64,000 nt of DNA, from sequence record PZ386980.1. The stretch is one strand, 5' to 3'. The translations under genes were made by a program, and so were the position numbers. This document shows positions 16,266-41,492 of this stretch, one piece after another; positions within the stretch are counted from its first letter, which is position 1, and the number at the start of each line of letters is the position of its first letter. The notes below the pieces were generated by a model. That model saw only the letters and a program-made list of their open reading frames with translations, was not told the origin of the DNA and made no database searches. The DNA comes from a phage.

Positions 16266-17267
16266 TTACTTAATTAACTGTAAAGCTTGTTCCAGACGAT
16301 CAAGACGATTAACAGATTCTTCCCAAATCCTTTTAGCCTGCTCATATTCTTTCTGTGCTTTATTAGAAATTTCTAGAACTTCTTTATAAGCTTTTTCTAG
16401 TGCAATAACTTCTGGACGAATTTCTATCGGTTCAGGTGAATCATCAAGATTATCCATTAGTTCCTCAAGGGTAGTTTCTTCTTTAGGAGTATTCACAATT
16501 TCATCACATTTTTGTTGATAAATTTCTTTATCAGTAGGTGAGTACGCGCACTTTACTTCACGAAGACTAATTACAATTTTATATCCTTCCCAACCACCCA
16601 TATTTTTGAAAGGATATGTATGAATACTTTTTACAGTTTCCATACAATCCAAAGCCGTCTCTAATTGATGAGTTATAGTGCTAGCAATTGAGAAAAATTT
16701 ATTAATATTCTTTTGGTTAGCTTCTGGTGTAAAAAATTCGTAATTCACAAAAATAGCTACTTTATTTTTATCAAGCTCATATTCTTTTACGATAATCATA
16801 TCAGAAGCCAAAGGATGAATTTGACGATAATCGCCATAACATAATTTAGAAGCTGATTTTAGAATTTGTCCTTTAAAAAGTCTGAAATTGCTAATCCAAC
16901 GACGAGTAAAAATATTCTTAGGGTCTTCTTTGATATTAAGATGATAAGAATTAACATCACCGAACCAATTGTATCCTATTACACCTTTAGTTCGTTTAAT
17001 TTCTTTCCCAAAATTACCAAGAATATCCCGATTAACCAAATATGAAAGAAGACGAGACCCTTTAAAGATTATCTTAATATCATCTTTATCTACACGGCTA
17101 GAAATTTCACGAACTTCATGAATAAATTTACTGGAAGAAACAATACTTGCATCAATACTGCTGAGCCATTGATTGATAATAGAAAGAACAGCGTTCTGAC
17201 TAGACATGGGTTTAACTTTATCATCAATAACACTATTGAATGATTTGATATATTCGTTACGAGTCAT
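16266..17267 (-). CDS. Uncharacterised protein, tandem paralog family member 2
   Basis: Start moved to ATG at 17267 (GAGGAG Shine-Dalgarno; upstream ATG lies inside the promoter -10); MTRNEYIKSF N-terminus; C-terminal coiled coil. Confidence 0.6.
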   Translation of the reverse strand: MTRNEYIKSFNSVIDDKVKPMSSQNAVLSIINQWLSSIDASIVSSSKFIHEVREISSRVDKDDIKIIFKGSRLLSYLVNRDILGNFGKEIKRTKGVIGYNWFGDVNSYHLNIKEDPKNIFTRRWISNFRLFKGQILKSASKLCYGDYRQIHPLASDMIIVKEYELDKNKVAIFVNYEFFTPEANQKNINKFFSIASTITHQLETALDCMETVKSIHTYPFKNMGGWEGYKIVISLREVKCAYSPTDKEIYQQKCDEIVNTPKEETTLEELMDNLDDSPEPIEIRPEVIALEKAYKEVLEISNKAQKEYEQAKRIWEESVNRLDRLEQALQLIK

Positions 17268-17295
17268 AATAATCTCCTCAGTAGAAAGTAAGAAC

Positions 17296-17330
17296 ATTAT
17301 ACCACATCCTTGTGGTAAAGTAAACTAGTT
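17296..17330 (-). promoter_or_regulatory. T4-type early promoter
   Basis: Minus strand -35 GTTTAC, 17 nt spacer, -10 TATAAT; ~25 nt upstream of ATG 17267. Confidence 0.55.
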
Positions 17331-18350
17331 CAGTGCATTTAATGCATTGTTCAGTTTAGAACGTTGCTTCGTGAGATTTTTGACTTTTTCTTGTGCTTTT
17401 TCTAGCATCTTTTCAGCTTCTAACACTTCATTGGTCGCTTTAACGAGTTCATCATCTACTGCCTTGATAGACTTCTCAATCGCATCCGCGTGCCATTTTT
17501 CAACAGGTTTAAGACTCGGATTTTCAATAGGAAGAAAATTCACTTTATTGAATTTCCATGCATCCTTATTACCTGAACTATACATCCAAAATTTAGGATC
17601 GTTTGATGAGTAATTGGATAAATTTAAATTTAAGTTATCTTGCACTTCCTGCTTCTTCTCTTGCGTGACTTCGTCCTTTCTCAAAAAATCATATTTAAAT
17701 GAAACAATCATATCAAGTTCATATGTTGTTGTGTCTAATTTAAATCGTTCGAAATGCTGTGAAATCTTAGACTGAACAGCGGCAACAACATCCATATACT
17801 TAAATGCTTCTGTCAACTGTGATTTAAGGCATTCACAAATTGAAAGAGAATTTTTTGTATTAGGTTTAAAGCTAATTCGTGCAGTTCTATTATTTTCTTT
17901 TAATGGTCTTACTTCCATCTGAAGAGTATAACCATCAAATTTCAAGTTCTTTAAGTTAATATCAGAACCTTTTAATCGACTAGCAGTTGATAAAATTTGC
18001 TTTAATTGTCTACGGAACAGAGCAATAAATCTCCATTCAATACGATAATGATTTGGATTGAAAAATCCAGATGATAAATCGACCTTACTCTGACCAACAC
18101 CTTGAACAAATAGAGGATTTTTATAATCAATAGTTTTACAGAAATCGGTGAGCTGCTCACGAGCAGTCATTTGTGTAATATATCCCGCTTTACTAAAATG
18201 ACGTAACCATTCACTGCTATTCATATACTTAAAGTGAATGGAACTATTAACTCTATCAGGGTCTAAATTATTTTGGCACAAAAATGTCATAACATCACGA
18301 GTATAGCTGGCATTACGAACCATATCTTCAATTTGAGAACGAGTTTTCAT
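17325..18350 (-). CDS. Uncharacterised protein, tandem paralog family member 3
   Basis: 341 aa; MKTRSQIEDMV N-terminus; C-terminal coiled coil. Confidence 0.6.
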   Translation of the reverse strand: MKTRSQIEDMVRNASYTRDVMTFLCQNNLDPDRVNSSIHFKYMNSSEWLRHFSKAGYITQMTAREQLTDFCKTIDYKNPLFVQGVGQSKVDLSSGFFNPNHYRIEWRFIALFRRQLKQILSTASRLKGSDINLKNLKFDGYTLQMEVRPLKENNRTARISFKPNTKNSLSICECLKSQLTEAFKYMDVVAAVQSKISQHFERFKLDTTTYELDMIVSFKYDFLRKDEVTQEKKQEVQDNLNLNLSNYSSNDPKFWMYSSGNKDAWKFNKVNFLPIENPSLKPVEKWHADAIEKSIKAVDDELVKATNEVLEAEKMLEKAQEKVKNLTKQRSKLNNALNALN

Positions 18351-18358
18351 AGTGTTCC

Positions 18359-19264
18359 TTAAGATTTAAGTAAATCAACAATTTTAATTAATTTTTCACG
18401 CTCAGATTTAGCTTTATTACTCAATCCAGATAGTCTGAAAATTTCATCGTCATACTGTTGAATAGAAATATTCAGCTCTTCAATTTGCTTATTAAAATAA
18501 TCAATTTGCTCAGAATGTTTTTCGTTACTACGAACTGGTACAGGGTTTGTAGGCAATTTAGTTAAACTGGATTCATCCGGGCGATAAATTAAAATGCAAT
18601 TTGAACCAATCGGGCATTTAGCACCAGATGAATATTCTAACGTTCCAGCTTCTTTTAAAACTTCAAAAGCTAAACAGAGATGATGCCCCATATTAACATA
18701 ATCTGTAGAGTGAGCTCTGACGTAATAATCATCTCCACGAGTACTAAATTTAAAGCATTTAAGGTCTTCTGTATTATTAGTTTTAAAAATCATTTGTTTA
18801 TCTAGACCTTTAGCCAATCGAGCACCTAATGCTAATAATCGTCGTTGATTTTCCCACAAATCCGCAATCATTTGATCGAATGACAATTTCGGCATTAGTC
18901 GACCATAAAGGTCATATCCTTTATTATAATTGCGAAGAATTTCACTCGCGTTAATGCGAGACAATGCTCCAATTTTATTAAGGGCTTTCATGATGCGATT
19001 AGATAAACTCATTCCAGACCCATTTGTTCGCTGTAAATGTTTTTCTAATCCAAACCCAATATCAACTTTAAATTTATCTAAAATTTCAGCATGAACATCT
19101 CTGTCAATAACATTCAAATCCAAAGTTGGGTTAAATCTATGAAAAAATTTATCTGGCTCTCCACGACGAAATACAGTCCATTCATTCATCATTTTTTTAT
19201 TAACTAAAGATTTAATTACTGCATTGACATTATTAATTACTACTGACATATTTTTCTCACTCAA
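18359..19264 (-). CDS. Uncharacterised protein, tandem paralog family member 4 (more divergent)
   Basis: 301 aa; similar size and C-terminal coiled coil (EQIDYFNKQIEELNISIQQYDDEIFRL). Confidence 0.55.
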   Translation of the reverse strand: MSEKNMSVVINNVNAVIKSLVNKKMMNEWTVFRRGEPDKFFHRFNPTLDLNVIDRDVHAEILDKFKVDIGFGLEKHLQRTNGSGMSLSNRIMKALNKIGALSRINASEILRNYNKGYDLYGRLMPKLSFDQMIADLWENQRRLLALGARLAKGLDKQMIFKTNNTEDLKCFKFSTRGDDYYVRAHSTDYVNMGHHLCLAFEVLKEAGTLEYSSGAKCPIGSNCILIYRPDESSLTKLPTNPVPVRSNEKHSEQIDYFNKQIEELNISIQQYDDEIFRLSGLSNKAKSEREKLIKIVDLLKS

Positions 19265-19665
19265 TTTTCAATTTTACTAAATACACAGAATATGATGGAA
19301 AAGACTATATAAGCACCGCACACAGATTGAACTAATACCATTCCAAAGAACCAAATAATATTATCAAACAGTGTCTGTTTTACGTCGAAAGGACGTAAAC
19401 TTACAGTAATATTATCACCTTTTTCTATTGAAGAATACATCTCTGGTGAAATATATTCACTAAATCTATAACCGTCTTTGAGTTCATATACAGCAATAAA
19501 CGATAAACTAGACCCCTTTCCTTGAGTTCCTGTAAGGGTATTAACTACAGTAACATCATAATCTTTATAATGCATATAATCATTAATTGCGTAATAACCA
19601 TATGCAACTACTACACATAAACAACATATCAATAAATTCAATCTTTTAATTATCAACTGTTTCAT
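19261..19665 (-). CDS. Membrane protein with N- and C-terminal hydrophobic helices
   Basis: 134 aa; LNLLICCLCVVVAYGYYAI and IIWFFGMVLVQSVCGAYIVFSIIFCVF. Confidence 0.55.
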   Translation of the reverse strand: MKQLIIKRLNLLICCLCVVVAYGYYAINDYMHYKDYDVTVVNTLTGTQGKGSSLSFIAVYELKDGYRFSEYISPEMYSSIEKGDNITVSLRPFDVKQTLFDNIIWFFGMVLVQSVCGAYIVFSIIFCVFSKIEN

Positions 19666-19720
19666 AATAATCTCAATTAAAAGGGCTTAGAACCATTATA
19701 CCATCCTTGGTATAAAGCGG

Positions 19721-20248
19721 TTATGCGAGTACCGTCTTTAACCGTTCTTCAAACTTCCGAAGAGTATTCTGGCGTTCAGCTCTTTGCTTTTTGTAAGTTT
19801 CAATACGCTCTGAAATGAGATTGTATCGTTCATTTACTGTTTCTTTCATAAAATCAGGAATTTCACGAGAAGCTTTAATCTCGTCAAATTTATCAATAAC
19901 AGCTTGCTCTTCAGCAATTAAGTTATCATACATCAAAATATCTTTCTTGATGAACTCAATATCTTCTTGAGTTACACGAGATAACTTAGATGCTTTATCC
20001 TTTTTGTACTGTTCGTTAGTATCACGAGACCAGTGTAATGTACGATTTTTATTCGTATTCTTGTAAATTTCTACAATACCAATCTCATCGATAATAACGA
20101 TCCAATTCCAACGGGATTTGTAAATTTGTCCTCCATCAACAGTGATTTCACCACCGATTGAGACATCATTAAAGAACTTGCTTTGAGCTTCAGATTTAAA
20201 TTTACCATCATTGTAGTTTACCAAGTTGAAAATATCTTTAGCATTCAT
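19721..20248 (-). CDS. Hypothetical protein with charged C-terminal coiled coil
   Basis: 175 aa; GGAGGA Shine-Dalgarno; downstream of early promoter. Confidence 0.55.
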   Translation of the reverse strand: MNAKDIFNLVNYNDGKFKSEAQSKFFNDVSIGGEITVDGGQIYKSRWNWIVIIDEIGIVEIYKNTNKNRTLHWSRDTNEQYKKDKASKLSRVTQEDIEFIKKDILMYDNLIAEEQAVIDKFDEIKASREIPDFMKETVNERYNLISERIETYKKQRAERQNTLRKFEERLKTVLA

Positions 20249-20269
20249 TTTCTGTTCCTCCGTAGTTGA

Positions 20270-20320
20270 TAGTTGTATAGTATCACAGAGGAACAGTCTT
20301 GTAAACCACTAAAAGAAACT
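20270..20320 (-). promoter_or_regulatory. T4-type early promoter with conserved leader
   Basis: -35 GTTTAC, 18 nt spacer, -10 TACTAT, then ACAACTATCAACTAC shared with promoters at 22410, 25980, 37672. Confidence 0.5.
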
Positions 20321-20623
20321 TCTTTCACAATTTTTTCCACTGAACCACGCGCTCACTGCTTTCTTAGTCTCAGGAGCAGTGTTATCCATAAACCATTCAA
20401 AGGCAGCCTTTTTATGATTCTGGAGGGCTTCTCGGGCTTTAATCTGCTCACGGTCTATTAACACTAACATATGAGCCTTTCTTGTCACCAGGGGCTTCTT
20501 ATGATTTTTTGAATATTCCCAATCATTTGTCCATCGCATTGTTGTTGCGAACTGAAATACTGCTTCTTTAATTTTAGTTTCATAAATTTCACGAGCCTTT
20601 GAGTATAACATCATTACCTCCAT
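20309..20623 (-). CDS. Hypothetical protein
   Basis: ORF track (104 aa). Confidence 0.45.
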   Translation of the reverse strand: MEVMMLYSKAREIYETKIKEAVFQFATTMRWTNDWEYSKNHKKPLVTRKAHMLVLIDREQIKAREALQNHKKAAFEWFMDNTAPETKKAVSAWFSGKNCERSFF

Positions 20624-20693
20624 TTACCAGTTTAATTCTAGTCATCTTTTTGATGGCAGTCCATATAATCTATTTCTGAACTGCCTTTTTGTC

Positions 20694-21413
20694 TTAGGAT
20701 TCTTCTAAATGTCTTTTCTGAAAAGTTGATACCATACTACGATACGGTTCATTTGGATATCCGTGTTTTATAGCTTCCTTTGTAAATTTTCTCCATCCAT
20801 ATTTAGTTTCTTTCCAAAGCTCGAATAATTCATCTTCATATTGCCATATAGTTAAATGAGAACGCTTTGCAGCTTTAATTCCATTAATATGCTTTTCTTT
20901 TACTACAGGATTGCTTAGTTTCTTTTTAATAATATTACTAACTTTTCTAACAAAAACTGGGTCCTTATATCGTTGCGAAGTTTTTATTGAAGTGTTTAAT
21001 TTAGCTTCCGGCGTGGATGTGACCTCTTTCATCTTTTTCTTCATATGCTGTATATGATTAGGATTTTTCCATAAATTTATAGAATGCTTTTTGCATTTTA
21101 TCCTAGTTTCATCTGCAACCTTTCCTCCTTCACCCCCGTATGACAGGTTAACACAGTTTTTTCCATATTTCAATTTACCTGCCATGATATATAATATTTC
21201 AGCTTGTACCATTTTATCATAATTATCAAAAACTTCTAAAACCGTTTTTGATAATATGTGGTCATTTGACACTTTTACACGTTCTATATAATTTCCACTA
21301 CCAACATACGAATCATTGATGTTATTAGTTATATGTCGACCATAATAGTATTTCTTAATACCTGTCTTTAAATTTAATATTTCAGTTTTATAGATAGTAA
21401 AATATTTTTTCAT
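20694..21413 (-). CDS. GIY-YIG homing endonuclease (Seg-like)
   Basis: 239 aa; N-terminal FTIYKTE...KKYYYGRH...SYVGSG GIY-YIG motifs; basic C-terminal half; ATGA overlap with upstream AAA ATPase gene. Confidence 0.7.
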   Translation of the reverse strand: MKKYFTIYKTEILNLKTGIKKYYYGRHITNNINDSYVGSGNYIERVKVSNDHILSKTVLEVFDNYDKMVQAEILYIMAGKLKYGKNCVNLSYGGEGGKVADETRIKCKKHSINLWKNPNHIQHMKKKMKEVTSTPEAKLNTSIKTSQRYKDPVFVRKVSNIIKKKLSNPVVKEKHINGIKAAKRSHLTIWQYEDELFELWKETKYGWRKFTKEAIKHGYPNEPYRSMVSTFQKRHLEES

Positions 21414-22378
21414 TTTAATAATACCGTTTCAGCGATTTCTTCCCAACCGTTTTTGTCGGTCATAATAAAGTCAGCAAGATAAAGTGCAGTACGCAGTGAA
21501 ACATTACGTAAACGATTAACATTGACTTTCATCCATGATAATGCTTTATAAGTTTCTTCATCAGAAAGACCGCGCTTTTGCATCATGTCGGTTGAAAGAA
21601 TAACATCTTCAACCCTGACCATAATTTCTTCATTAGTGTGAACACCCAAATCCAAATAAACTGAGCGGGACACTAATGCTTGTAAATGTGGAGCAAGTTT
21701 AGTACCACGGTCTAATTCGCGGTCAATGTCAACGTTTGTGATAAAAACAATCGTTCCTTTAAATTCAAACTCACGCTCAATGCCTTTTTCTTCTAAGTAA
21801 GAAGATGCGGTGCTCCAGCAGACTTTACGGGTCTCTCCAGTGTCCAGAGCAGCTTTCAGAAGATTAAGAATGTCCATATCAGAGAAAACATCCACATCAT
21901 CAATCAAAAGGACAGAATTCTCTTCACGATTATTCCAAAGCTGTTCATAAAGACCAATACCAGAGATTTTACCATTAATGCTTTTATACTCAATGTATCC
22001 AATATCATTTGCTTTATTTAAAGCTTTATCTAAAGAATACGTTTTACCAATACCTGCTGCTCCCGAGATAATTAATGAACGAATGTTTCCGTTAATAATA
22101 CCATTCGTCATCATTCCCATAACATTAAATCTTTTATTAATGCGGGTTTTCATATCTTCATACGATTCTTTAACTTCTTCAACTTTTACACCATCATATG
22201 AAATGTCTGATTTGTAAACCCAAACACCGCGACGCTTACCGTCAATTTCAACAAAAACTTTACCATCTCCTTGTGCATCTACCGGAGCATTATCTGGGAA
22301 CCATTCGCCTAAGAGCTCAAAAGTTCCAGAGATTTCTTTACCGAAGTAGATACCCTTATTGATAGTTACAGTTTTCAT
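21410..22378 (-). CDS. AAA-type P-loop ATPase
   Basis: Start moved to ATG 22378 (GGAG Shine-Dalgarno; track start is TTG inside the promoter); Walker A GAAGIGKTY, Walker B VLLIDDVD. Confidence 0.7.
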   Translation of the reverse strand: MKTVTINKGIYFGKEISGTFELLGEWFPDNAPVDAQGDGKVFVEIDGKRRGVWVYKSDISYDGVKVEEVKESYEDMKTRINKRFNVMGMMTNGIINGNIRSLIISGAAGIGKTYSLDKALNKANDIGYIEYKSINGKISGIGLYEQLWNNREENSVLLIDDVDVFSDMDILNLLKAALDTGETRKVCWSTASSYLEEKGIEREFEFKGTIVFITNVDIDRELDRGTKLAPHLQALVSRSVYLDLGVHTNEEIMVRVEDVILSTDMMQKRGLSDEETYKALSWMKVNVNRLRNVSLRTALYLADFIMTDKNGWEEIAETVLLK

Positions 22379-22409
22379 TTTATTCTCCAAATCTGTATCA
22401 GTTGATAGT

Positions 22410-22465
22410 TGTATAGTACCATAAAGCTTTATGCTTGTAAACAACTTTGTGAAAAATTTTTGAAA
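22410..22465 (-). promoter_or_regulatory. T4-type early promoter (promoter part of a stem-loop/promoter cassette)
   Basis: UP element, -35 GTTTAC, TGg extended -10 TACTAT, conserved ACAACTATCAAC leader; directly downstream of hairpin 22473..22490. Confidence 0.55.
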
Positions 22466-22472
22466 TAAAAAA

Positions 22473-22490
22473 GGGAGCCCGAAGGCTCCC
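22473..22490 (-). terminator. Rho-independent terminator
   Basis: gggagcccgaaggctccc (UUCG loop on transcript) followed by UUUUUUAUUU. Confidence 0.6.
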
Positions 22491-22492
22491 TA

Positions 22493-23506
22493 TCATTTAT
22501 AATAACTTCGATGGTTTTCGAGATACACCTTCTCAAGGAAGTCATCCCAGAAACCCATGTCTACTTTTTGCTGCATACCGTTCTTAGAAGCTTCAGTAGA
22601 TGCTGCTTCTACTTGATCGACCACATCTTCCAAAAACTCTTGAACTGTTTTAAATGGATGTTTACCCAACTTCACGTCGAGAATAAATGGAGCATCTTGG
22701 AGTGGATAAATCAAGTCGCCAGTTTTGTAAATTTCCAATAGTTGAAGTCCACCACGACAAGCATGACTTAGTGCTTTCCAATCAATGCCTTCATTGGCTT
22801 CGGCCTTACGAGCACGTTCACCATATTCAGCATCTAATTTGTTCAGTGACTGCTTAAGCTCAATAAGAGAAAGCGTTGTCTGATATTTACGACCCAACAC
22901 AGTGTAGAACGTTTGCGGGCCTGTTTTCTCGTGATTATGGAACACCCATTCACAGAATTCGTTTTCTGGAAGACGATGCTTAATATCTTCAATTTTAGTG
23001 CGACGTTGTCCTTGTGTTCCATCTTCTCGGTAGACATTCCGTTGATCAGGAATTTGATTAACTACTTTCAATACATCACGTAATGCAGCCAAACGAGAAC
23101 CCTTGACACCGTATTTAGAAGCTTGCTTGCGAACATATCCTAAATAGGATTTCATGTTAGTCGTATAAAAACGAGAACGGTTGTCTTGAATAAACTTCCA
23201 CACATCAGGCAAATCTGATTTAACTACTAGCTCAGGTGGAGTGTGAAGCATATCCAATGCTACGGTTTCACCATCTGCTGCTAATTTAAAGAAATATTTA
23301 AGACTGTATAGTTCATGGTCAATATCATCTTTAGTGTTTTTAGATGATGTGTTGTTAGTGTTTTTACTCATGTGCTCTTTGACATTTCCGATAAGAATAT
23401 CACGAGCAGGAGGAACAAAGATTTCTTTAAAATCTACATCAGATTCTGGGGTAGAAGTTCCATAAAGATGACTACCAAAATAGCTTTTCATTACTGTTTT
23501 CATCAT
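22493..23506 (-). CDS. Predicted nucleotidyltransferase (Pol-beta superfamily) with C-terminal helical domain
   Basis: 337 aa; N-terminal GSHLYGTSTPESDVDF fits the G[SG]x9-13D[hx]D NTase motif. Confidence 0.65.
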   Translation of the reverse strand: MMKTVMKSYFGSHLYGTSTPESDVDFKEIFVPPARDILIGNVKEHMSKNTNNTSSKNTKDDIDHELYSLKYFFKLAADGETVALDMLHTPPELVVKSDLPDVWKFIQDNRSRFYTTNMKSYLGYVRKQASKYGVKGSRLAALRDVLKVVNQIPDQRNVYREDGTQGQRRTKIEDIKHRLPENEFCEWVFHNHEKTGPQTFYTVLGRKYQTTLSLIELKQSLNKLDAEYGERARKAEANEGIDWKALSHACRGGLQLLEIYKTGDLIYPLQDAPFILDVKLGKHPFKTVQEFLEDVVDQVEAASTEASKNGMQQKVDMGFWDDFLEKVYLENHRSYYK

Positions 23507-23964
23507 TCAGCCTTATATTCAATAACAGGACATACTTTAGCTTTACGAGCTTTTAAAAATTCAACGATAATCGATTTCTTGGGTTGAATAGGAGGTAAAC
23601 CTTTATACGCCCTATCAATATTTTCTACGTGTAAAGCATAATCCTTTTTCCATTTATAATCTTTATATTTTTCACGCAAATGTGCAGGAATAACAAATGA
23701 ACCGATAATAAGTAAAACAACCAAAAGCGCAAGTATAAATGCTGATGGAAGCAAAGTCCATAAACTACCGAAAATAAGCCAACGTTGTAGGCTTTCTGCA
23801 CAAATAATTGTTAACCCTACGAGTATAGCACACCCAAAAATAGAAACGAAAAATGTAGGTATGGCAATAGACCAAAAATATGCGCATAGTGTCTTAGGTC
23901 GTTGCCATTCGTCGTTAAACAATTTGAATAATTTATAATGCCAAGAGTTTTCATTAATAATCAT
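23503..23964 (-). CDS. Membrane protein (2-3 predicted TM helices)
   Basis: 153 aa; long hydrophobic stretches. Confidence 0.55.
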   Translation of the reverse strand: MIINENSWHYKLFKLFNDEWQRPKTLCAYFWSIAIPTFFVSIFGCAILVGLTIICAESLQRWLIFGSLWTLLPSAFILALLVVLLIIGSFVIPAHLREKYKDYKWKKDYALHVENIDRAYKGLPPIQPKKSIIVEFLKARKAKVCPVIEYKAE

Positions 23965-23966
23965 AA

Positions 23967-24488
23967 TTATCCTTTCATTGAAGGCGTAACGGTTGTTAAA
24001 TACTTAATCATAGCTTCAGCTTCTGATTTTGATAATGAAATTTCTCCATTGCTTTGACGAATAGAAATAAAATCCGGATGACGGTCACCACCAGCTTTTA
24101 AAACACACATATAAGTATCAACTTCGCCTTCAATATTTGAAATGATTGAAGCAGTTCCACATGAATGCGGTTTTTGATAAATCAATACAGCTTTTCTTCC
24201 ACCATTTGACTGTTCATAGGCTTTTAATACATCAAACAAATCAGTTCTTTTATCAATAGCTAAAATGTTATTTTCATCTTCAATGTTAAATCCTTCGGAT
24301 ACTTCATAAAGCGTTACCCATAAATCACCGATGTCAATAACAGCATTTACTTTTCCACAGCTTTCAAGAGTATGACAAATTTTCTTGATTTCGTCATAAC
24401 TCATTTTAATAATATCATCTCCTTGGCTAAGAAAGATGTCATTTTTAAATTCAACACGAATTAAACCACTTCCACTTGAAATAAACAT
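23967..24488 (-). CDS. Uncharacterised protein, paralog pair member A
   Basis: 173 aa; shares GFNIE... and C-terminal SKSEAEAMIKYLTTVTPSM motif with 24495..25040. Confidence 0.55.
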   Translation of the reverse strand: MFISSGSGLIRVEFKNDIFLSQGDDIIKMSYDEIKKICHTLESCGKVNAVIDIGDLWVTLYEVSEGFNIEDENNILAIDKRTDLFDVLKAYEQSNGGRKAVLIYQKPHSCGTASIISNIEGEVDTYMCVLKAGGDRHPDFISIRQSNGEISLSKSEAEAMIKYLTTVTPSMKG

Positions 24489-24494
24489 ATTTCC

Positions 24495-25040
24495 TCACTT
24501 TGAAATCATAGTTGGAATAACAGAATCAAGATAAGTCTTTAGTGCAATAGCTTCGTCTTTGGTAAATGTAATGATATGTGATCGAAAATCGTCAATTTGA
24601 CGAATAGATACTACATCTCCCTCTTCATAGCATTTTGACACATTTAAAATAGTTTCATCATTCTGATTGCAAGCGTTAGTAATAATAGCATTGCAATTTT
24701 TAAACCATTTTAAACTATGTTTTCTTTCATTAGAATAATAAAAATATTTAATCTTATCTATAAAACTATCCCAATGGATAACTGATAAGCATATTGACTC
24801 GCTTTCAATATTAAATCCTGGGCATGAAGAATAAAAATGAATTTTATGCTCATCATTAATGCTTACAATTTTATCAGTATAAGGATTTTCAATTTTGGTT
24901 AAATGAATGATTTCACTAGGCGTAAAATACAGCATATCGTCTTCTTGTGTCAAACGATACATATTATTTACTTTTTCTATAGCCAATTCACCAAAAAGTG
25001 AACTAACTTCTAATACTAATCGTTTCGCCTCGCTCATCAT
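24495..25040 (-). CDS. Uncharacterised protein, paralog pair member B
   Basis: 181 aa; C-terminal TKDEAIALKTYLDSVIPTM matches the paralog. Confidence 0.55.
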   Translation of the reverse strand: MMSEAKRLVLEVSSLFGELAIEKVNNMYRLTQEDDMLYFTPSEIIHLTKIENPYTDKIVSINDEHKIHFYSSCPGFNIESESICLSVIHWDSFIDKIKYFYYSNERKHSLKWFKNCNAIITNACNQNDETILNVSKCYEEGDVVSIRQIDDFRSHIITFTKDEAIALKTYLDSVIPTMISK

Positions 25041-25169
25041 TACATACTCCTTTGAACCATATCAATAATGTTATTCACCAGATTATAAGTAAACATTGGG
25101 TAATTATATTGAATCATCACATACACAACAAACAAAACTTTCATTCTCTTCTCCTTGGCAGTTGACAAG

Positions 25170-25215
25170 ATTACTATACCATAACCTTGCCAACTTGTAA
25201 ACCATTAAATGGCGT
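25170..25215 (-). promoter_or_regulatory. Possible early promoter
   Basis: -35 GTTTAC with -10 TATAGT-like. Confidence 0.45.
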
Positions 25216-25367
25216 TTTCAATAAAATTCTGAAGCTTTGTGTGAGCATCAACCATGATTTTCATTTCTTCTTTGGCGAAAGCTGTACCTCTTTCCCGAGA
25301 AGAACATTCATAGTCAGAAACTGCATTAGCATATTCTTCGATTAGTTTCATTAAAAACATCTGTTTT

Positions 25368-25562
25368 TCAGTTTTCATTATTCCACCTAATCATTTCAAG
25401 ATATTGAACTAACTTAGCTTTAGATTTATCCAAATCCTTTTTAGCTGCTTCTATACCGTCGTATGAATATCCTTCACAATGCTCAACTGCTAATTGATAT
25501 GAATCTATTTCAATATCACGTGCTAATTTAATGATTTTTTCAAACTGTTCGCGTGTTAGCAT
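25368..25562 (-). CDS. Hypothetical small protein
   Basis: ORF track. Confidence 0.45.
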   Translation of the reverse strand: MLTREQFEKIIKLARDIEIDSYQLAVEHCEGYSYDGIEAAKKDLDKSKAKLVQYLEMIRWNNEN

Positions 25563-25564
25563 AC

Positions 25565-25804
25565 TTACACTCTCGTATTATGATCGATAATTTCATCAAG
25601 AAACATATCTAACGCTTCTATAGCATTATCCACTTTAGTTTCAAAGTCTTTAATGCCTTTATTCGAAATACCCGATGAATACCAAGCAAAGTCAATCAGC
25701 TCTTCATCTGCTTTACGAATTGAAGCCACTAATTCCTTGATTTTATCTGCTTGCTCTATACTAATCATTATTCCACCACATATGACAGAGAGAATATTGC
25801 ACAC
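25565..25804 (-). CDS. Hypothetical small protein
   Basis: ORF track. Confidence 0.45.
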
Positions 25805-25956
25805 GCCATGTGAGTTGCAACTTCATCACACATATTATAACGTTTCTTAAGAAGTTCTACAAGTTCTTCACTAGTAACTTCATCCATGTCGACGAAAAAA
25901 TCACCATTAATGATGACGTAGATATTTCCTTCTTGATTGAGTGCTTCAATTTTCAT
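25768..25956 (-). CDS. Hypothetical small acidic protein
   Basis: Track ORF trimmed to first ATG with GAGGAG Shine-Dalgarno. Confidence 0.4.
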
Positions 25957-25979
25957 GATGTTCTCCTCTTTATCTGATA

Positions 25980-26030
25980 GTTGTATAGTATCACAGCTCA
26001 AACGGAAAGTAAACCGGTAAAATGAAAAAA
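25980..26030 (-). promoter_or_regulatory. T4-type early promoter (promoter part of a stem-loop/promoter cassette)
   Basis: -35 GGTTTAC, -10 TACTAT, conserved ACAACTATCA leader; directly downstream of hairpin 26031..26046. Confidence 0.5.
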
Positions 26031-26046
26031 GTCTCCCGAAGGAGAC
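26031..26046 (-). terminator. Rho-independent terminator
   Basis: gtctcccgaaggagac followed by UUUUUUCAUUUU. Confidence 0.6.
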
Positions 26047-26051
26047 TAATG

Positions 26052-26438
26052 TTATTCGAGGGAAAGAAGATACTTACTCTGGTAAAACATTCCAGTAATA
26101 TCATCTATCGTGCTTTGAATGGCTGGAGGCATTTCTTTATAAATGCTGTTAGATTGGTCTAGTATGCGATCAATCATTTTAATTGTGTCGGTAGGAAGTT
26201 TACTGGCATCTGGAATTGAAGGTGTGTATTTTCTACCAGAATACCCCAAATATTGCTCACCAAATTTATCAATCAAATCTGGCAACTCGGAGAAAATAAA
26301 ATCGTATGCTTTGTGTCTAGCATAACTTTTAGTTTCAAAATGTGCAGAATGAAAATAAGCTTGTGCAGCCATTAATAAACCTAAGTATTCATCTGCCTTT
26401 GAAGGTTTTCCACTTTGTGAAAAGTCGCTGAATTTCAT
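26052..26438 (-). CDS. Hypothetical protein upstream of rI (rI.-1 position)
   Basis: 128 aa; overlaps rI stop. Confidence 0.5.
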
Positions 26439-26728
26439 TCAGTCTCCAATTTAATGTTCATAATTCTAGCGTATGATTGTGCCATCTCCGCGCCTCGTTC
26501 TATACATTCAAAATCAGAAGAGCACGGGTCATTTTTATAGGTCGTTCTCATAAAACTATAGAACTGTTCAGATGATTCTACGCTTTTATTTTCAAAAAGC
26601 ATATAAACATGTCTAATACCAGATTCCATAAATTTATCAAAATGAGGATCGACATTCGCTTCAATTGGTGGAGATAAAGCAAATGACAATCCTAGCATGG
26701 CAAAAAGTGCCGTTGCTTTTAAGGCCAT
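26435..26728 (-). CDS. rI: Lysis-inhibition regulator rI
   Basis: 97 aa; MALKATALFAMLGLSF signal anchor; matches recalled T4 RI; sits just before tk. Confidence 0.85.
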   Translation of the reverse strand: MALKATALFAMLGLSFALSPPIEANVDPHFDKFMESGIRHVYMLFENKSVESSEQFYSFMRTTYKNDPCSSDFECIERGAEMAQSYARIMNIKLETE

Positions 26729-26740
26729 AAAGGCCTCCTA

Positions 26741-26953
26741 TCATTTTTGTCCTGTATTTACTTTATGCCGATGCACGGCCTTAACTTTATCAAGGTATTT
26801 TTCAAAATTTCGCAATCTAGTATAGTCTGCCGGAGATTGGTTGAGTGATACTTCTCGACGCAAAGCTGAAATGATATTTCCAACTTCCCTACGAATTTCA
26901 TCTAATTGAAGCACAGTAAGATTGCGAAGTTGCTTTTCAGTTAATTGTAGCAT
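26741..26953 (-). CDS. Hypothetical protein
   Basis: ORF track (70 aa). Confidence 0.5.
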
Positions 26954-26995
26954 ATATACCCCTTTAGTTAGATAAACCTATTTATAACTTTTGCA

Positions 26996-27577
26996 CTAAC
27001 CGAGCTTTTTAGTTAATTCATTCCAATGTTTTCTACACAAAGAAACATAAATTTCATCACCAATACAGATTTGATTACCTTCTTTAACTGGTGTTCCATC
27101 TTCCATTAATCGAGCTGTCATAATCGCTTTTTTGCCGCAATGACAAACTGCCTTTAGTTCAATAAGTTTATCTGCAATCGCTAAAAGTTCTTTAGAACCT
27201 TCAAACAATTTTCCAGCGAAATCAGTCCTTAATCCATAAGCCATAACAGGAACATTATATGTATCAACAATTCGGCTCAATTGATGCACTTGTTCAGTTT
27301 TTAAAAACTGAGCTTCATCTACAAATACACAATGAATATCTTTTTGTGCTTCAGCCCATTTATAGAACTCGAAAATATCCATATCATCTGTAATAATATT
27401 CGCTTCCTGTTTAATTCCAATGCGAGAAACAACTTCACAGACAGAATCGCGAGTATCAATAGCAGGCTTAAGAACTAATACACTCATTCCACGTTCTTTA
27501 TAATTATGTGCAGCAGTCAAAAGAGAAGCAGATTTTCCAGCATTCATTGCTGCATAAGTAAAAATTAAACTCGCCAT
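26996..27577 (-). CDS. tk: Thymidine kinase
   Basis: 193 aa; P-loop AAMNAGKS, C-terminal Cys cluster CHCGKKA...C; matches recalled T4 Tk. Confidence 0.93.
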   Translation of the reverse strand: MASLIFTYAAMNAGKSASLLTAAHNYKERGMSVLVLKPAIDTRDSVCEVVSRIGIKQEANIITDDMDIFEFYKWAEAQKDIHCVFVDEAQFLKTEQVHQLSRIVDTYNVPVMAYGLRTDFAGKLFEGSKELLAIADKLIELKAVCHCGKKAIMTARLMEDGTPVKEGNQICIGDEIYVSLCRKHWNELTKKLG

Positions 27578-29701: not shown

Positions 29702-30163
29702 TCATTGAGTTTTAATTACTGCTTTAGAAGCCTTTCCTGGTAAACGACGACTGTTAATAATTGCCATCCTACATTGGAGTGACGGGTCTTTGAACTTCTC
29801 ATTAGGTTTACAAACCGTAAATCCAAGCCAAAGATTTCCATCTGTGATTTCTAAACGTCCAGGACGATATTCAACCCCATCAATAAAATCCTCGTCAATG
29901 TCAGGACGCGGAGGCATACTCAGAAATTCATTAACTTCTAAAACATGGTCTTTTATTTTATGGAATAATTCAAAAACGTATGTCTCATCAATCTCCCGTT
30001 GAATTGCGCGATCAAGAAGATGCTGAGAATATTTTAGATGAAACGATGAGACCCCTGCTGCTTTTGATGCCTCACGAATCTCATTGTTAATTTGACGAAA
30101 CTCCGACTCAAAGTGACGACGAAGCTTATTTCGACGGATAAAAACTTCTGTATTGATAGTCAT
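29702..30163 (-). CDS. regB: Endoribonuclease RegB
   Basis: 153 aa; same length and position (after tk block, before denV) as T4 RegB; early promoter directly upstream. Confidence 0.8.
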   Translation of the reverse strand: MTINTEVFIRRNKLRRHFESEFRQINNEIREASKAAGVSSFHLKYSQHLLDRAIQREIDETYVFELFHKIKDHVLEVNEFLSMPPRPDIDEDFIDGVEYRPGRLEITDGNLWLGFTVCKPNEKFKDPSLQCRMAIINSRRLPGKASKAVIKTQ

Positions 30164-30188
30164 GTTATTCTCCTCTTAACTGATAGAA

Positions 30189-30236
30189 AAATTATACCAC
30201 AGTCAAGAGGAAAAGTAAACAGTTATTCTTTAAATC
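30189..30236 (-). promoter_or_regulatory. T4-type early promoter
   Basis: -35 GTTTAC, 18 nt spacer, -10 TATAAT; ~28 nt upstream of regB ATG. Confidence 0.55.
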
Positions 30237-30543
30237 TAATCAATTTATTCATAGACTTTGAAACTTCTGCACGAACCTCATGTAAGTTTTTAAGCTGTTC
30301 AAGACGCTGCGTATAGTAAGCAATTTCATCTTCTTCGAGACAGTCCTGTGAATCTTCTTTAAGATAACGCGCATAGTCCTGGAAAGCTTTACGGACTACT
30401 TCCTGGAAGTCATCAAGACTTTGAATTTTCTTAGGAGCGGCAGATACACGACGAGGTGCAGTATAATACTCATAACCAAACCCTGCGCTTAATTGAGCCA
30501 TTAGTATTTTTCCTCTGGTTGGAACACTGCGCGACAAGCCCAC
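30223..30543 (-). CDS. Hypothetical protein
   Basis: ORF track; probable start at internal Met. Confidence 0.45.
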
Positions 30544-30818
30544 ATACTAGCTTCTTTGAGTTTAGACTTGGCCTTTTGAATGCAGTCAATAGAATTCATA
30601 GCTTCATCTAACTTAGAGTCTGACACTTCTTCATTTCCACCTAATGTGCTGTAGATTTCAATATACTCGTCTTCTAAAGCCTTTAAAATAAGTCCTAAAC
30701 GAACTTCAGCGTCTTTGATAGCATTCACTTTACCGATTTTCTCTTCAGTATGCGGCTTATAACCTTTAATGTCTTCAATCATATTTGACTTCCTCACCAG
30801 TACATAAATCATATTCAA
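30501..30818 (-). CDS. Hypothetical small protein; speculative Acb2 (vs.4)-like cyclic-nucleotide sponge
   Basis: 94 aa from internal Met; position after regB as for T4 vs.4; no motif-level support. Confidence 0.3.
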
Positions 30819-30996
30819 CTAAACGAATAGGTTCATGAATGCCATATCCTTGAACAGAAATTTCTGTCGTAGGATAAATTCCATCAATATCACCCATATT
30901 CCAGGCTTCATTAAATTGCTGTTCGCCTGAATTACTAAACCACTCGGCGAAAGCATTTAGCACATCTTTAGAACCTTCAATAATTATCTTTGCCAT
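30775..30996 (-). CDS. Hypothetical small acidic protein
   Basis: ORF track. Confidence 0.45.
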   Translation of the reverse strand: MAKIIIEGSKDVLNAFAEWFSNSGEQQFNEAWNMGDIDGIYPTTEISVQGYGIHEPIRLVEYDLCTGEEVKYD

Positions 30997-31358
30997 TACA
31001 AACTCTCAGTAAAGGTACGAGCGATAACGTCGCGCTGCTGTTCCGGAGTCAGAGAGTTAAAGCGAACTGCATAACCGGATACACGGATGGTCAGCTGCGG
31101 ATATTTTTCCGGATGCTTAACTGCATCTTCCAGAGTTTCACGACGCAGAACGTTAACGTTCAGGTGTTGACCACCTTCAATTTTAACTGTAGGTTGTGTT
31201 TCAATTTCAATTTCACGGGCATGCAAACCGTAGAAAATTTCTGGGTCTACAAAAGAGTCCTCTTTAAAGGTTTTAGAGACAATAATTCGTGCTTGAATAC
31301 CATCTTCAAAATAAATAGTACCTTTATGTGTGCCTTCAAGAATTTGATATGCTTTCAT
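30996..31358 (-). CDS. Autonomous glycyl-radical cofactor (GrcA/YfiD-like)
   Basis: 120 aa; C-terminal ~60 aa essentially the E. coli GrcA sequence as recalled, incl. RVSGYAVRF glycine-radical motif. Confidence 0.85.
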
Positions 31359-31365
31359 ATAAACC

Positions 31366-31695
31366 TCAATTAGAAAATAAATTTATCCAAGATTGTTCTT
31401 TAATTAAAAATGGCTCAGAATCATATGCCATTAAACTTTGGGTGATTAGTCCTTTAAAAGGTCCATCAATAAATTCCATGGTAAAATATGGAATTTTATT
31501 CATTAACTGCGCGTTAGGAGCAGTGCACAAAACTCTGCATCCTTTGAATACGCCTTTTTGTAATTTGTATTGCTTGGGATAAAATTCGCTCAAAATGTTA
31601 TTATTTGCCAAAATTTCAAAATGATTCACCAATTTATTTTTAATAGTTTTTGGCGAAAAATAAAGATATTCGAAAAGCTGTGTGTCTGTCATCAT
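31366..31695 (-). CDS. Hypothetical protein
   Basis: ORF track (109 aa). Confidence 0.5.
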
Positions 31696-32282
31696 TGCAT
31701 TCCAATCACAAAAAATTGAGGACGAACTGTTTCACCTGTTTCAGCATTATAGCTTCGACAACAGTGTTGTACCGTTTTAATATGGATATTGTAAATCTTA
31801 TCCATATCAGGAGCTTTAATAGGTTCGTCAATTATGTACAAGATACGAGAAAGCGATAACCCACGGAATTTATGACCTTCATTACCGATAAAACTACGGA
31901 CAGAATCAGTAAATAAACGGAATCGAATATCATCGCTAGAATAACGAGAAAATTCTTTTTCAATGTTGCCAGCAGAAATTTTAGCGTAAGCTGAAGTATT
32001 AGAAAGAACAATAACTGTTCCGCCATCATACAGCCAATTAGCAGCAAAGTTAGTCACAGCAATTGATTTACCGGATTGACGTCCACCATCTATACGAAGT
32101 GTGCAGTACTGTTTGAGCACATCTTCCATTGGTGGAAGATAATCATTCTTACAAATTTCTTCTACTCTAGCATCAGAATGGTGTGTAAAAGCATTCATCA
32201 GGGATAGATAAGGACCAGTTAAAAATGTTCTCATTTTATTCTCTCTAAGTTTGGGCCATTCCGTGGCGCATGAATTGTCCAT
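31692..32282 (-). CDS. Small P-loop NTPase
   Basis: Walker A GGRQSGKS and Walker B ILYIIDE. Confidence 0.55.
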   Translation of the reverse strand: MDNSCATEWPKLRENKMRTFLTGPYLSLMNAFTHHSDARVEEICKNDYLPPMEDVLKQYCTLRIDGGRQSGKSIAVTNFAANWLYDGGTVIVLSNTSAYAKISAGNIEKEFSRYSSDDIRFRLFTDSVRSFIGNEGHKFRGLSLSRILYIIDEPIKAPDMDKIYNIHIKTVQHCCRSYNAETGETVRPQFFVIGMQ

Positions 32283-32375
32283 TTCTGTATTTACCCATTA
32301 CCGCACTTGGGCTCGACCTTATCACAGGTTGGCGGGAATCCCTCATAGAATCATGAGGTCCAGGTTGTTCCCATA

Positions 32376-32849
32376 TTATTTGAACGATTTAACGTACTGA
32401 ATAGAACCCTTACTATTCACAAAGGCAATTTTACCATTTTTATTATACATGGTAGCAGTACGCTGATAACCATAGGTTTGTTTACCAGATTGATAACCAA
32501 CTAATGCAAAATTATCTTCACCCATTTTATTCTGTTTAGCGCGAATGCGTTCATGACCATGTGCCATAAGAACCTTAGCATCACCAGTTGCAATGGATCG
32601 ACGAGTTTTTTCATCTTCAACTGCATTAACAAAGTCGTCAAATGAATCAAATTTAGCATGAGATTTATTATACAATTTTCCATCTACTGCATAATTATAT
32701 CCCTGTACATCCATCTCAACTTCTGTACCATCATCCAATACAGCAGTAATTTTTTGACCTTTTTTAAATTTCAAAAGATCAGTAAAAGATTCAGCAATAA
32801 TTTGAGAATTAATAGCTGCTTCAGTGATAAATTCTTGATATGTTTTCAT
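32376..32849 (-). CDS. Internal (head-packaged) protein with capsid-targeting sequence
   Basis: 157 aa; N-terminus MKTYQEFITEA matches the T4 internal-protein targeting pattern; lies upstream of denV rather than between denV and e. Confidence 0.7.
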   Translation of the reverse strand: MKTYQEFITEAAINSQIIAESFTDLLKFKKGQKITAVLDDGTEVEMDVQGYNYAVDGKLYNKSHAKFDSFDDFVNAVEDEKTRRSIATGDAKVLMAHGHERIRAKQNKMGEDNFALVGYQSGKQTYGYQRTATMYNKNGKIAFVNSKGSIQYVKSFK

Positions 32850-32858
32850 GGGTTTCCT

Positions 32859-33275
32859 TTAAATGTAAATATTTTTACCGTAATACTTATACCAATGTGG
32901 TTTCATTAAAATTTTTTCATCAAGTCGTTGTTGACTCAATTTAATAGCTGATTTGCATGGATTATAATCATTTTTCCATTCTATTGGAATATCGCTGATG
33001 TCAGGAACTTCAGTATCTTTTATACTGAACCCGCGTTTTAAGCATTCCGTTATAATGTCTAATTGACGCTTTCGCAAAAATTCTAACTTATCGTAAAAGA
33101 ACGTAACATGACCAGAACCTAAAATAAACTCGGAAGATATTTTAAAATCTTTAACGCGCTTACCGTTTGCCACATGCTTACGAACTATACCAAAAACACG
33201 CGGCAATTCACGGTATTCTGCGATTAAATGTTGATCAGCAAGTTCAGATACTAAAGTCAAATTAATACGAGTCAT
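32859..33275 (-). CDS. denV: Endonuclease V (pyrimidine-dimer DNA glycosylase)
   Basis: 138 aa; [29 protein letters not shown] matches recalled T4 DenV. Confidence 0.93.
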
Positions 33276-33297
33276 TTTATCCCTCCAAGTAACTGTG

Positions 33298-34303
<1,006 letters not shown>

Positions 34304-36155: not shown

Positions 36156-36749
36156 TTATTTCAGAGAATTAATATATTCCTGAACATCGGCAGAGGTAGT
36201 TTCAACCCCAGAAATATTACCATTAAAGGTTTCAACTCGAGCAAGAGTATCTTCAATATCAACCTTAGTCAGTGCTGCAATTTCAACTACATCATCAGCA
36301 GTACTAATTCCAAGGGCATTCGCGGCGCGAGTTTCACGGATATATTCCAATTTAACTGCAAGTTCTTGGCGAGCATCATCTAACTCAACTACTTTCTTGG
36401 CAATTTCAATTCGCATTTCAGCATAACCATCAGCTTTAGTAGTCAACTGCTCAGCTGTTCGACGATATAGTAAACCAAGTTTAGCATGCATTGTTACATC
36501 TTGACCTTCCGAAAGGAGCTTGCGAATTTCACGCTCTTTTGATTCGGCCTGCTTATTCTTTTCGACAATAAGTTCACGAATACGCTTTTCTTCATTAATA
36601 GATTTAACAGAAGCAGTTTTTAGATCTTTAATTTTATCAAGCAATTTTGCTGCTGCGGCAGTATACTGCTCTTCAACAGATAGATTTTTAGCCATAGCAG
36701 AACCAAGTTTAGTGCGAATAAACTCAACAATTTTCTTCAGTGTGTTCAT
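36156..36749 (-). CDS. PspA/IM30-like coiled-coil protein (tentative)
   Basis: 197 aa, almost entirely heptad-like charged helix; pattern resembles phage-shock protein A; by eye only. Confidence 0.4.
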
Positions 36750-36792
36750 AGTATTTCCTTAGGTTGATTAGAAATTAAAATCTGCAGAAGAA

Positions 36793-37326: not shown

Positions 37327-37367
37327 ATTATAGGCTCATAATATCTCAATCATGAGCCTATGTAAAC

Positions 37368-37631
37368 TTATTTCATATTATTGAAATATTCTTCTGCGAT
37401 TTCGTCGTTATCATGGTAAACTTTAGAAGACAGTTTAACATAACCTTCAGCAGTGAACATGTTAATCACAACCTTTACAGTATACCACTGACCATCTTCA
37501 TTACCCATTACTGCGTAAGTTTCAAACATCGGATGATCAGGACCGATAACTTTAATATCATTCACTGTACGACCAAAATCTTCTGAAACACATTTCATAA
37601 AGAAGTTGAACAGTTCACCGTAATTATCCAT
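37368..37631 (-). CDS. Hypothetical small protein
   Basis: Trimmed to first ATG (GGAGAA Shine-Dalgarno); downstream of early promoter. Confidence 0.5.
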   Translation of the reverse strand: MDNYGELFNFFMKCVSEDFGRTVNDIKVIGPDHPMFETYAVMGNEDGQWYTVKVVINMFTAEGYVKLSSKVYHDNDEIAEEYFNNMK

Positions 37632-37671
37632 TTCATTCTCCAAGTTGTTTTCTGTATCAGTAGTTGATAGT

Positions 37672-41466: not shown

Positions 41467-41492
41467 TTTATTCTCCTCAGTAGTTGATAGGG

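Follow-up and report, generated by a model that had tools for sequence, protein, structure and literature searches.

Early promoter cassettes with stem-loops in the accessory region of a T4-like phage and their probable part in gene shuffling

Introduction

In front of nrdC.10, in a 64,000-nt stretch of phage DNA (sequence record PZ386980.1; the whole stretch is called the window here), a GC-rich hairpin with a UUCG loop is followed by an early promoter whose start region returns in front of other genes. Why should a hairpin, a promoter and the first bases of a leader recur together, and do such units mark the places at which accessory genes come and go? Host sigma70 RNA polymerase fires T4 early promoters immediately after infection. 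The primary alignments of these promoters are reportedly those of Liebig & Ruger (1989) and of Wilkens & Ruger. In a later review, Hinton (2010) mentions 'additional regions of consensus' in them (PMC2988021), and a dRNA-seq preprint gives the T4 early -10 motif as TGTG(A/G)TA(C/T)(A/T)AT, with a preference for A at +1 (bioRxiv 10.1101/2024.04.04.588121). Promoter-early stem-loop (PeSL) cassettes were defined by Arbiol et al. (2010) in RB49/phi1 (PMC2839356). Comeau et al. (2014) extended them to PST/T4 and nt-1/KVP40 and gave the T4/PST consensus TTTACW-N17-TAYWAT (PMC4122927).

Results

Source of the DNA

A megablast search with window positions 19000-27000 returned 100% identity to Enterobacteria phages RB51 and RB68 (Tequatrovirus) and about 97% identity to T4, T6, RB14 and RB32. 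Subtracting 32145 from an RB51 coordinate gives the window coordinate. The gene order is gene 46, nrdC, tk, regB, e and the tRNA cluster, followed by baseplate genes. Up to about 45300, the minus strand encodes nearly all of the genes; it also carries all cassette features of the window, and the cassettes sit in the nrdC-tk-e-tRNA accessory region of RB51. For genome-wide counts, the complete RB51 genome was put together from the window and three further pieces. An 865-nt stretch between genes 46 and 46.1 (about 2215-3079) holds no annotated feature in the RefSeq record, which skips the locus tags RB51ORF059 and 060 there; a pair of 45-nt direct repeats (family D5; 3040-3084 and 3243-3287) lies close to it.

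The cassette in front of nrdC.10

The focal cassette spans 22376-22491. Its parts are listed below in the direction of transcription; the hairpin was found by folding, the discriminator and the start by promoter geometry, and the other elements were read from the letters.

22472-22491, minus strand: terminator-like hairpin AGGGAGCC-UUCG-GGCUCCCU at the end of the nrdC.11 unit
22462-22471, minus strand: U-run after the hairpin
22443-22471, minus strand: A/T-rich, UP-element-like tract TTTTTTATTTCAAAAATTTTTCACAAAGTT (A/T conservation at -40 to -56 is family-wide)
22437-22442, minus strand: -35 GTTTAC of the nrdC.10 early promoter
22413-22421, minus strand: extended -10, TGG (22419-22421) and TACTAT (22413-22418)
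22407-22412, minus strand: discriminator ACAACT
22406, minus strand: predicted +1 A, start of the leader; the block is 22399-22412
22401-22408, minus strand: conserved core CTATCAAC
22376-22398, minus strand: G-poor, unstructured 5' UTR (MFE -3.3, z -0.65)
22378-22388, minus strand: SD GGAGAATAAAA, which fits the consensus of strong RegB sites (PMC3014915)
22376-22378, minus strand: nrdC.10 ATG

After the -10, the order is thus ACAACT, ATCAAC, the SD GGAGAATAAAA and the nrdC.10 start codon. The hairpin folds at -17.7 kcal/mol with a z of -4.93, a value reached by 0 of 200 shuffles.

A family of early promoters

We named each site by the G of GTTTAC and searched for GTTTAC-N18-TAnnnT, which corresponds to a 17-bp spacer counted from TTTACA. 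The window holds 15 such sites, all on the minus strand, where 0.83 were expected, and none of 100 shuffles reached 15. The preliminary description had placed early promoters at about 20270, 22410, 25980 and 37672 and a variant at 41493. We find all of them, with the G at 20306, 22442, 26014, 37704 and 41524; they share GTTTAC and the -10 TACTAT, and a sixth copy, at 41855, had been missed. Four window sites carry TACTAT-ACAACTATCA and two carry the variant TACTAT-TACCyyATCAA. Two sites lie directly 3' of a GC hairpin with a cUUCGg loop and a U-run, just as had been described (22472-22491 and 26030-26047). The other cassettes and hairpins of the window are as follows.

20246-20340, minus strand: nrdC.8 cassette (-35 20301-20306, -10 TACTAT 20277-20282, exact ACAACTATCAACTAC 20262-20276, ATG 20248)
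25954-26047, minus strand: mobD.5 cassette (-35 26009-26014, -10 TACTAT 25985-25990, ACAACTATCAGA, ATG 25956)
26030-26047, minus strand: mobD.5 hairpin AGUCUCC-UUCG-GGAGACU with U-run (fold, -10.8 kcal/mol)
37629-37750, minus strand: e.8 cassette (A/T tract, -35 37699-37704, -10 TACTAT 37675-37680, exact 15-mer 37660-37674, ATG 37631)
41464-41570, minus strand: tRNA.4 cassette, variant (-35 41519-41524, -10 TACTAT 41495-41500, TACCCTATCAACTAC)
41792-41900, minus strand: Ip5 cassette, variant (-35 41850-41855, -10 TACTAT, TACCTCATCAAA)
30158-30265, minus strand: regB early promoter, bracketing stem over the SD (-23.1 kcal/mol, z -4.95); one endpoint of the T6 deletion
33270-33375, minus strand: denV early promoter, bracketing stem; other endpoint of the T6 deletion and site of ipII+ipIII in T4
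36749-36865, minus strand: e.6 early promoter; one edge of the e.7 / RB32ORF130c / RB14ncORF134c replacement slot
37305-37410, minus strand: RB32ORF130c early promoter, 13-bp bracketing stem; second edge of that slot
25140-25245, minus strand: mobD.2 early promoter (TATAGT, cTTGTCAAC), bracketing stem (-21.6 kcal/mol, z -4.43)
17265-17370, minus strand: nrdC.4 early promoter, hairpin within the spacer (CCACAaggaTGTGG; sequence and fold)
37842-37865, minus strand: GAAA-loop terminator-like hairpin in copy 1 of the 36-nt repeat flanking RB32ORF132c (fold)
38401-38424, minus strand: GAAA-loop terminator-like hairpin in copy 2 of that repeat (fold)

The whole RB51 genome has 33 sites, all on the early-gene strand, and the opposite strand has none. 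These 33 promoters share an A/T-rich UP region (-40 to -56), an invariant -35 and a -10 of the form TAyTAT. An extended -10 is usual, with T at -15 in 28/33 and G at -14 in 30/33, and the start region has T at -1 in 24/33 and A at +1 in 24/33. A moderately conserved block covers about -3 to +7. In an unbiased repeat search, the cassettes emerged as the two largest direct-repeat families of the window (D1 and D2). Of 12 cassettes in the window, nine are also present in T4, where 68 nt show 0-5 mismatches. In -35/-10 spacing, in TGn and UP element and in orthology to T4 early intergenic sites, the sites agree with T4-type early promoters; their promoter activity and +1 position are predicted from this geometry. 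A generic sigma70 consensus scan was uninformative because the DNA is AT-rich (101 matches vs 88 expected), and the T4 records NC_000866.4 and AF158101.6 carry no annotated promoter features.

The RegB strong-site consensus GGAGRAYARAA is matched by GGAGAATAAAA in the focal cassette (22378-22388) and again in the 41524 cassette, and partially in the 37704, 20306 and 26014 cassettes. The cassette ribosome-binding sites are of the type targeted by the RegB nuclease and are putative cleavage sites.

Stem-loops upstream of and around the promoters

A stem-loop accompanies 21/33 RB51 promoters. This bears out the stem-loop component of the preliminary description, although its forms are more varied than noted there: six are upstream terminators, 12 are bracketing stems and three are hairpins inside the spacer. 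The upstream terminators lie 13-32 nt 5' of the -35, and four of them have cUUCGg loops. Both UUCG hairpins of the window (22472-22491 and 26030-26047) reach z values of about -4.5 to -4.9. The pattern of an intrinsic terminator, in which a transcription unit ends with a GC-rich hairpin and a U-run, is found at 22472-22491, 26030-26047, 37842-37865 and 38401-38424. Terminator action of the cassette hairpins is predicted from these GC-rich stems, their UUCG or GAAA loops and the U-runs.

In a bracketing stem, the -35/-10 spacer forms the 5' arm, and the 3' arm is part of the discriminator, leader or SD of that same promoter, so that the stem encloses the -10 and the start site. In the nrdC.8 cassette, for example, the spacer sequence CTGTTCCTC pairs with the SD sequence GAGGAACAG (-18.8 kcal/mol, z -4.33). 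The Ip5 cassette has a 13-bp stem around the -10 (-17.2 kcal/mol, z -4.65), and the spacer of the tRNA.4 cassette contains ATAGGGT, complementary to ACCCTAT. No promoter among the 33 combines an upstream terminator with a bracketing stem. The bracketing stems are unfit for one covariation alignment because their registers differ between paralogues; we used instead a permutation test with mismatched spacer/leader pairs. Spacer-leader self-duplexes average -11.0 kcal/mol, compared with -8.1 kcal/mol for mismatched pairs (permutation p = 5e-5). In 12 promoters, against 1.65 expected, the self-duplex energy is below the fifth percentile for mismatched pairs.

Read-through RNA across six of these cassettes is predicted to fold strongly, at -17 to -23 kcal/mol with z from -3.6 to -4.95, over the following regions.

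30158-30222, minus strand: regB cassette
20243-20308, minus strand: nrdC.8 cassette
33270-33332, minus strand: denV cassette
25140-25204, minus strand: mobD.2 cassette
41790-41857, minus strand: Ip5 cassette
37305-37369, minus strand: ORF130c cassette

Those type-A cassettes that have upstream or distant hairpins instead show no such read-through fold. The bracketing stems are kept in all orthologues compared; with only 0-5 differences between the orthologues, compensatory changes are uninformative. The tRNA.4 promoter (41524) has a different spacer in T6 and EH2, with 12 mismatches that all lie inside the spacer. In that spacer, ATAGGGTA is still complementary to TACCCTAT, although the offset has shifted; the stem is thus retained even where the sequences no longer align.

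According to the folding predictions, a transcript from a cassette's own promoter would carry the 3' arm only and would thus have a free ribosome-binding site. If this is true, the stems that cover ribosome-binding sites would silence read-through RNA and confine genes such as regB, nrdC.8 and denV to the immediate-early window. The frequency of bracketing stems in a T-even genome and their exclusivity with upstream terminators may be less appreciated.

The block at the start site

The preliminary description stated that the promoters share their first ~15 transcribed nucleotides. The sequence is indeed shared, but part of it should not be transcribed, and the full identity is rare. The exact 15-mer ACAACTATCAACTAC occurs in the window at 20262-20276 and 37660-37674 only, with near-copies at 22398-22412 (2 mismatches) and 25970-25984 (3 mismatches). 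Allowing up to 3 mismatches gives 8 matches, where 2.5 were expected and where none of 100 shuffles reached 8. A -10 of TACTAT puts the start at the seventh base downstream, the A of CTATC, and ACAACT is therefore assigned to the untranscribed discriminator. By this geometry, about 6 nt of the 15-mer precede the predicted start, which leaves about 9 nt (AUCAACUAC) that would be transcribed.

Genome-wide, the core CTATCAAC stands in a fixed register, predicted -2 to +6, exactly in 9/33 RB51 promoters and with up to two mismatches in 14/33. It is tied to the -10 variant TACTAT, in that 10/12 such promoters have the block. Eight of the 33 promoters have a ACAACTATC-type leader and four the TACCyyATCAA type, so the absence of the leader elsewhere in the genome is not borne out. 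The ACAACTATC-type copies outside the window include the promoters of motA, frd.3, RB51ncORF048c and RB51ncORF272c. The block reaches other genera too: RB69 (Mosigvirus) and STML-198 (Gelderlandvirus) both have CTATCAA(C/A) in this register, following different discriminators and between different flanking bases. In RB69, T is at -1 in 9/9 promoters and G is absent from -4 to +6. In RB51, G makes up 7.4% of the positions from -4 to +7, compared with 18.7% of the genome (p = 8e-10). Among IMG/VR contigs of T4 size, a single contig can hold as many as six exact copies of the 18-mer TACTATACAACTATCAAC.

We consider that the shared leader consists of two layers. The first is the 8-nt core, seen in a fixed register across genera; the most likely constraint on it is start-site choice together with promoter escape. 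The second, the identities of 15-45 nt, reflects copying or gene conversion among paralogous cassettes, as judged from sequence comparison. RB51 promoters 52451, 25490 and 166051, and other groups, share spacers and ribosome-binding sites, and promoters 54587 and 166564 are identical at 35/37 nt from the -10 to the ATG. The promoters of rnlA (RB51 136621) and alt.-3 (121344), 15 kb apart, are identical from the -35 to about +25, including a long bracketing stem. Here a whole cassette seems to have been duplicated or gene-converted recently. Both the CTATCAAC core in its fixed register and the G-depletion may also be less appreciated.

Alternatively, the entire shared leader might be a functionless passenger of recent cassette duplication or gene conversion, with a similarity that will decay. 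Copying of this sort is suggested by the sub-families that share even the 17-nt spacer, presumably unconstrained, and the context of the RBS and ATG, and by the close linkage of the block to a single -10 variant (TACTAT, 10/12). However, how alike two promoters are in the start block hardly correlates with how alike their spacers are (r = 0.11), and in 343 pairs with unrelated spacers the block identity still amounts to 0.41, compared with 0.27 expected at random. The conserved register of CTATCAA(C/A) between different flanks in RB69 and STML-198 and the strong, family-wide G-depletion also speak against a mere passenger. This account is possible but somewhat improbable.

The block might instead act in the RNA, as a 5' leader element that binds S1 or enhances translation, determines 5'-end stability or co-determines RegB cleavage. 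The predicted transcribed part, AUCAACUAC onwards, is G-free and unstructured, and it lies 10-25 nt upstream of GGAG sites that match the strong RegB consensus. Yet about 40% of the conserved 15-mer is upstream of the predicted start, the distance from block to SD ranges from 3 to 27 nt among copies, and the published RegB/S1 determinants are 3' of GGA, not 5' (PMC3014915). In addition, a role of this kind finds no Rfam family match: a scan of 17000-46000 returned tRNAs only at gathering score. We therefore hold a role in the RNA to be quite unlikely. A structured RNA element was ruled out by the folds of the leader RNAs, which are unstructured (MFE 0 to -3.3 kcal/mol).

Very unlikely, in our judgement, is that the block is an operator for a putative phage factor, serving shut-off or the Alt-dependent stimulation of a subclass of early promoters. 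Its overlap with the start site would be a classical operator position, reviews call the mechanism of early-promoter shut-off unknown, and the Alt determinants map outside the -35, TGn and -10 (PMC2988021, PMC3014915). Shut-off is general, however, and the block is present in only about a third to half of the early promoters; moreover, it is without dyad symmetry and there is no candidate protein.

Indels and crossovers at the cassettes

We determined breakpoints from chained BLAST alignments of 14300-45400 against T4, RB14, T6, QOTSP and EH2. They fall at 8/12 cassette junctions and at 18/59 other gene junctions (one-sided Fisher p = 0.022), a test of moderate significance only, based on five relatives. 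Promoters and indels both favour intergenic sites, for which the comparison controls only at the level of gene junctions.

Individual cases, in which pairs of cassettes bound indels between relatives as the preliminary description had led us to look for, are more detailed. T6 (NC_054907.1) is without window positions 30222-33316, from vs.3 to denV, a promoter-to-promoter deletion of 3.1 kb. The T6 junction is a hybrid promoter: as far as TGTTTACTTT it is identical to the flank of the denV promoter, and from this sequence onwards to the regB promoter. The crossover is inside the 10-nt TGTTTACTTT, which the denV and regB early promoters have in common. The slot of e.7 / RB32ORF130c / RB14ncORF134c has both its edges within promoters, at 36821 and 37367. 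In T4, ipII and ipIII sit inside the denV cassette. The 57B-tRNA.4 slot lies between the two variant cassettes and holds Ip5 in RB51, ipI in T4 and both in RB14.

The focal slot, nrdC.11|nrdC.10, has four gene contents in different phages. It is empty in RB51 and T4; QOTSP and EH2 each have a single additional ORF there. The slot of phage F1 contains two ORFs, with a type-A promoter on one side and a type-B promoter on the other, and the homology of F1 to RB51 stops directly after ACAACTATCAA. STML-198 has a different cargo. The slot genes of STML-198 (NC_027344.1, 1180-1520) include an annotated RNA polymerase ADP-ribosylase (gp155), and a 'half' copy of the type-A -10 and leader, lacking the -35, stands before gp154, followed by a type-B-like promoter.

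The claim that the cassettes delimit the accessory modules holds in part: the enrichment is there (8/12 vs 18/59), but the claim is too strong, since many indels lie elsewhere. The homing-endonuclease insertions (seg-like and others), the mobD replacement, the tk.1 region, the changes in the tRNA cluster and a 4.5-kb deletion in EH2 are not bound by cassettes. Among the homing-endonuclease indels are the seg-like RB32ORF093c and ORF142 (20694-21413 and 39616-40224); mobD of T4 replaces ORF096c/097c (23508-24469). As these indels are without cassette borders, homing endonucleases give the region a second route of plasticity, one that does not depend on the cassettes. RB32ORF132c is bounded not by promoter cassettes but by a 36-nt direct repeat (37833-37868 and 38392-38427, 92% identical), whose copies mark exactly where ORF132c is exchanged for RB14ncORF136c in RB14. 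A '34 bp imperfect direct repeat' is noted in the RB51 record. The natural junctions described here may be less appreciated, too.

The position of the crossover varies: it is inside the -35 in T6, right after CTATCAA in F1, near the SD in the denV cassette and in distant hairpin repeats at ORF132c. No recombinase is annotated in the region. T4 is known to delete and amplify DNA at homologies of 2-10 bp (PMC9391042). General or short-homology recombination is best supported because the crossovers vary, no recombinase is nearby and T4 uses such short homologies. Dedicated site-specific recombination at integron attC-like sites, which was raised by Arbiol et al. (2010), who detected mini-circles (PMC2839356), and which the cassette-plus-gene layout recalls, is extremely improbable given crossover points that differ case by case, a region without annotated recombinase and the known T4 recombination at 2-10 bp, and we rejected the attC-like site on the first two grounds.

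Discussion

Our data indicate that the cassettes are very probably sigma70-type T4 early promoters of the Tequatrovirus RB51, orthologous to those of T4 and combined with stem-loops, and that they shuffle accessory genes by recombination. The PeSL reading of the preliminary description is upheld by the stem-loops at 21/33 promoters, the enrichment of breakpoints, the T6 junction and the slot variants.

A cassette is ordered as follows. A stem-loop, either an upstream terminator or a bracketing stem, is combined with the A/T-rich UP-like tract, the -35 GTTTAC(A/T), a 17-bp spacer, TGn and the -10 TAyTAT. Downstream come the start block built around CTATCAAC, with T at -1 and A at +1, then a leader that is unstructured and poor in G, the GGAG RBS and the start codon of the accessory gene. 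Immediately after infection, the host sigma70 polymerase would transcribe from the cassettes, and the stem-loops would shield each unit against transcription from upstream. The short conserved blocks common to the cassettes are the -35, the -10 plus CTATCAAC, and GGAGAATAAAATG. With such shared blocks, the very active homologous recombination of T4 could cross over between non-allelic cassettes, which would delete, insert or swap the genes between them.

It is conceivable, though doubtful on balance, that T-even early promoters carry two uncharacterised layers in addition, namely a start-site block that tunes start and escape or is the cis target of shut-off or Alt stimulation, and stems that cover the ribosome-binding sites.

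The cassettes and their proposed shuffling role are already published, and the reading in the preliminary description is correct. Since both the class of element and the role proposed for it are in the literature, our analysis adds little as discovery. Useful increments are the promoter-to-promoter deletion in T6, the nrdC.11|nrdC.10 slot with its four states, and the statistics of the start block and the bracketing stems. The cassettes matter because they supply accessory early genes in T4-like phages with both a promoter and insulation and offer a simple route for gene exchange between phages. Their cargo includes counter-defence genes, nrdC.5 against Dsr1 and ipIII and the Ip genes against host restriction (PMC9391042, PMC4122927). 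An exact cassette anatomy should help the annotation of transcription units in hundreds of Tequatrovirus genomes, the prediction of cargo-gene locations and the engineering of these phages.

Among known systems, the T4 early promoters (PMC2988021) have the same UP tract, -35 GTTTAC, 17-bp spacer, TGn, -10 TA(C/T)(A/T)AT and +1 A, and on the counter-clockwise strand they likewise precede early genes that are nonessential; the window sites are their orthologues. Nothing essential differs, except that RB51 is a separate isolate. Like the PeSLs, the RB51 cassettes combine an early promoter with a stem-loop, and crossovers occur at different points from the A/T tract to the ATG. In the published PeSLs of PST/T4, the stem-loop is just 5' of the promoter, whereas in RB51 this arrangement is the minority (6/33) and bracketing stems are commoner (12/33). 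Some RB49 PeSL classes have bracketing stems, like these 12.

The RBS-sequestering hairpins of T4 gene e and I-TevI (PMC3014915) are similar in that the promoter is in the 5' part of the hairpin and the 3' arm is over the RBS. Transcripts initiated upstream are therefore predicted to be untranslatable, and those from the cassette's own promoter translatable. In gene e and I-TevI, late promoters delay expression; in RB51, the internal promoter is early and, as predicted from folding, would limit translation to the immediate-early window. Integron cassettes and morons also place a single accessory gene with its own expression signals between resident genes. Integrons need an integrase and attC, whereas no recombinase is evident for the RB51 cassettes. 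Morons are not thought to move via their regulatory sequences, whereas in RB51 the promoter itself supplies the homology.
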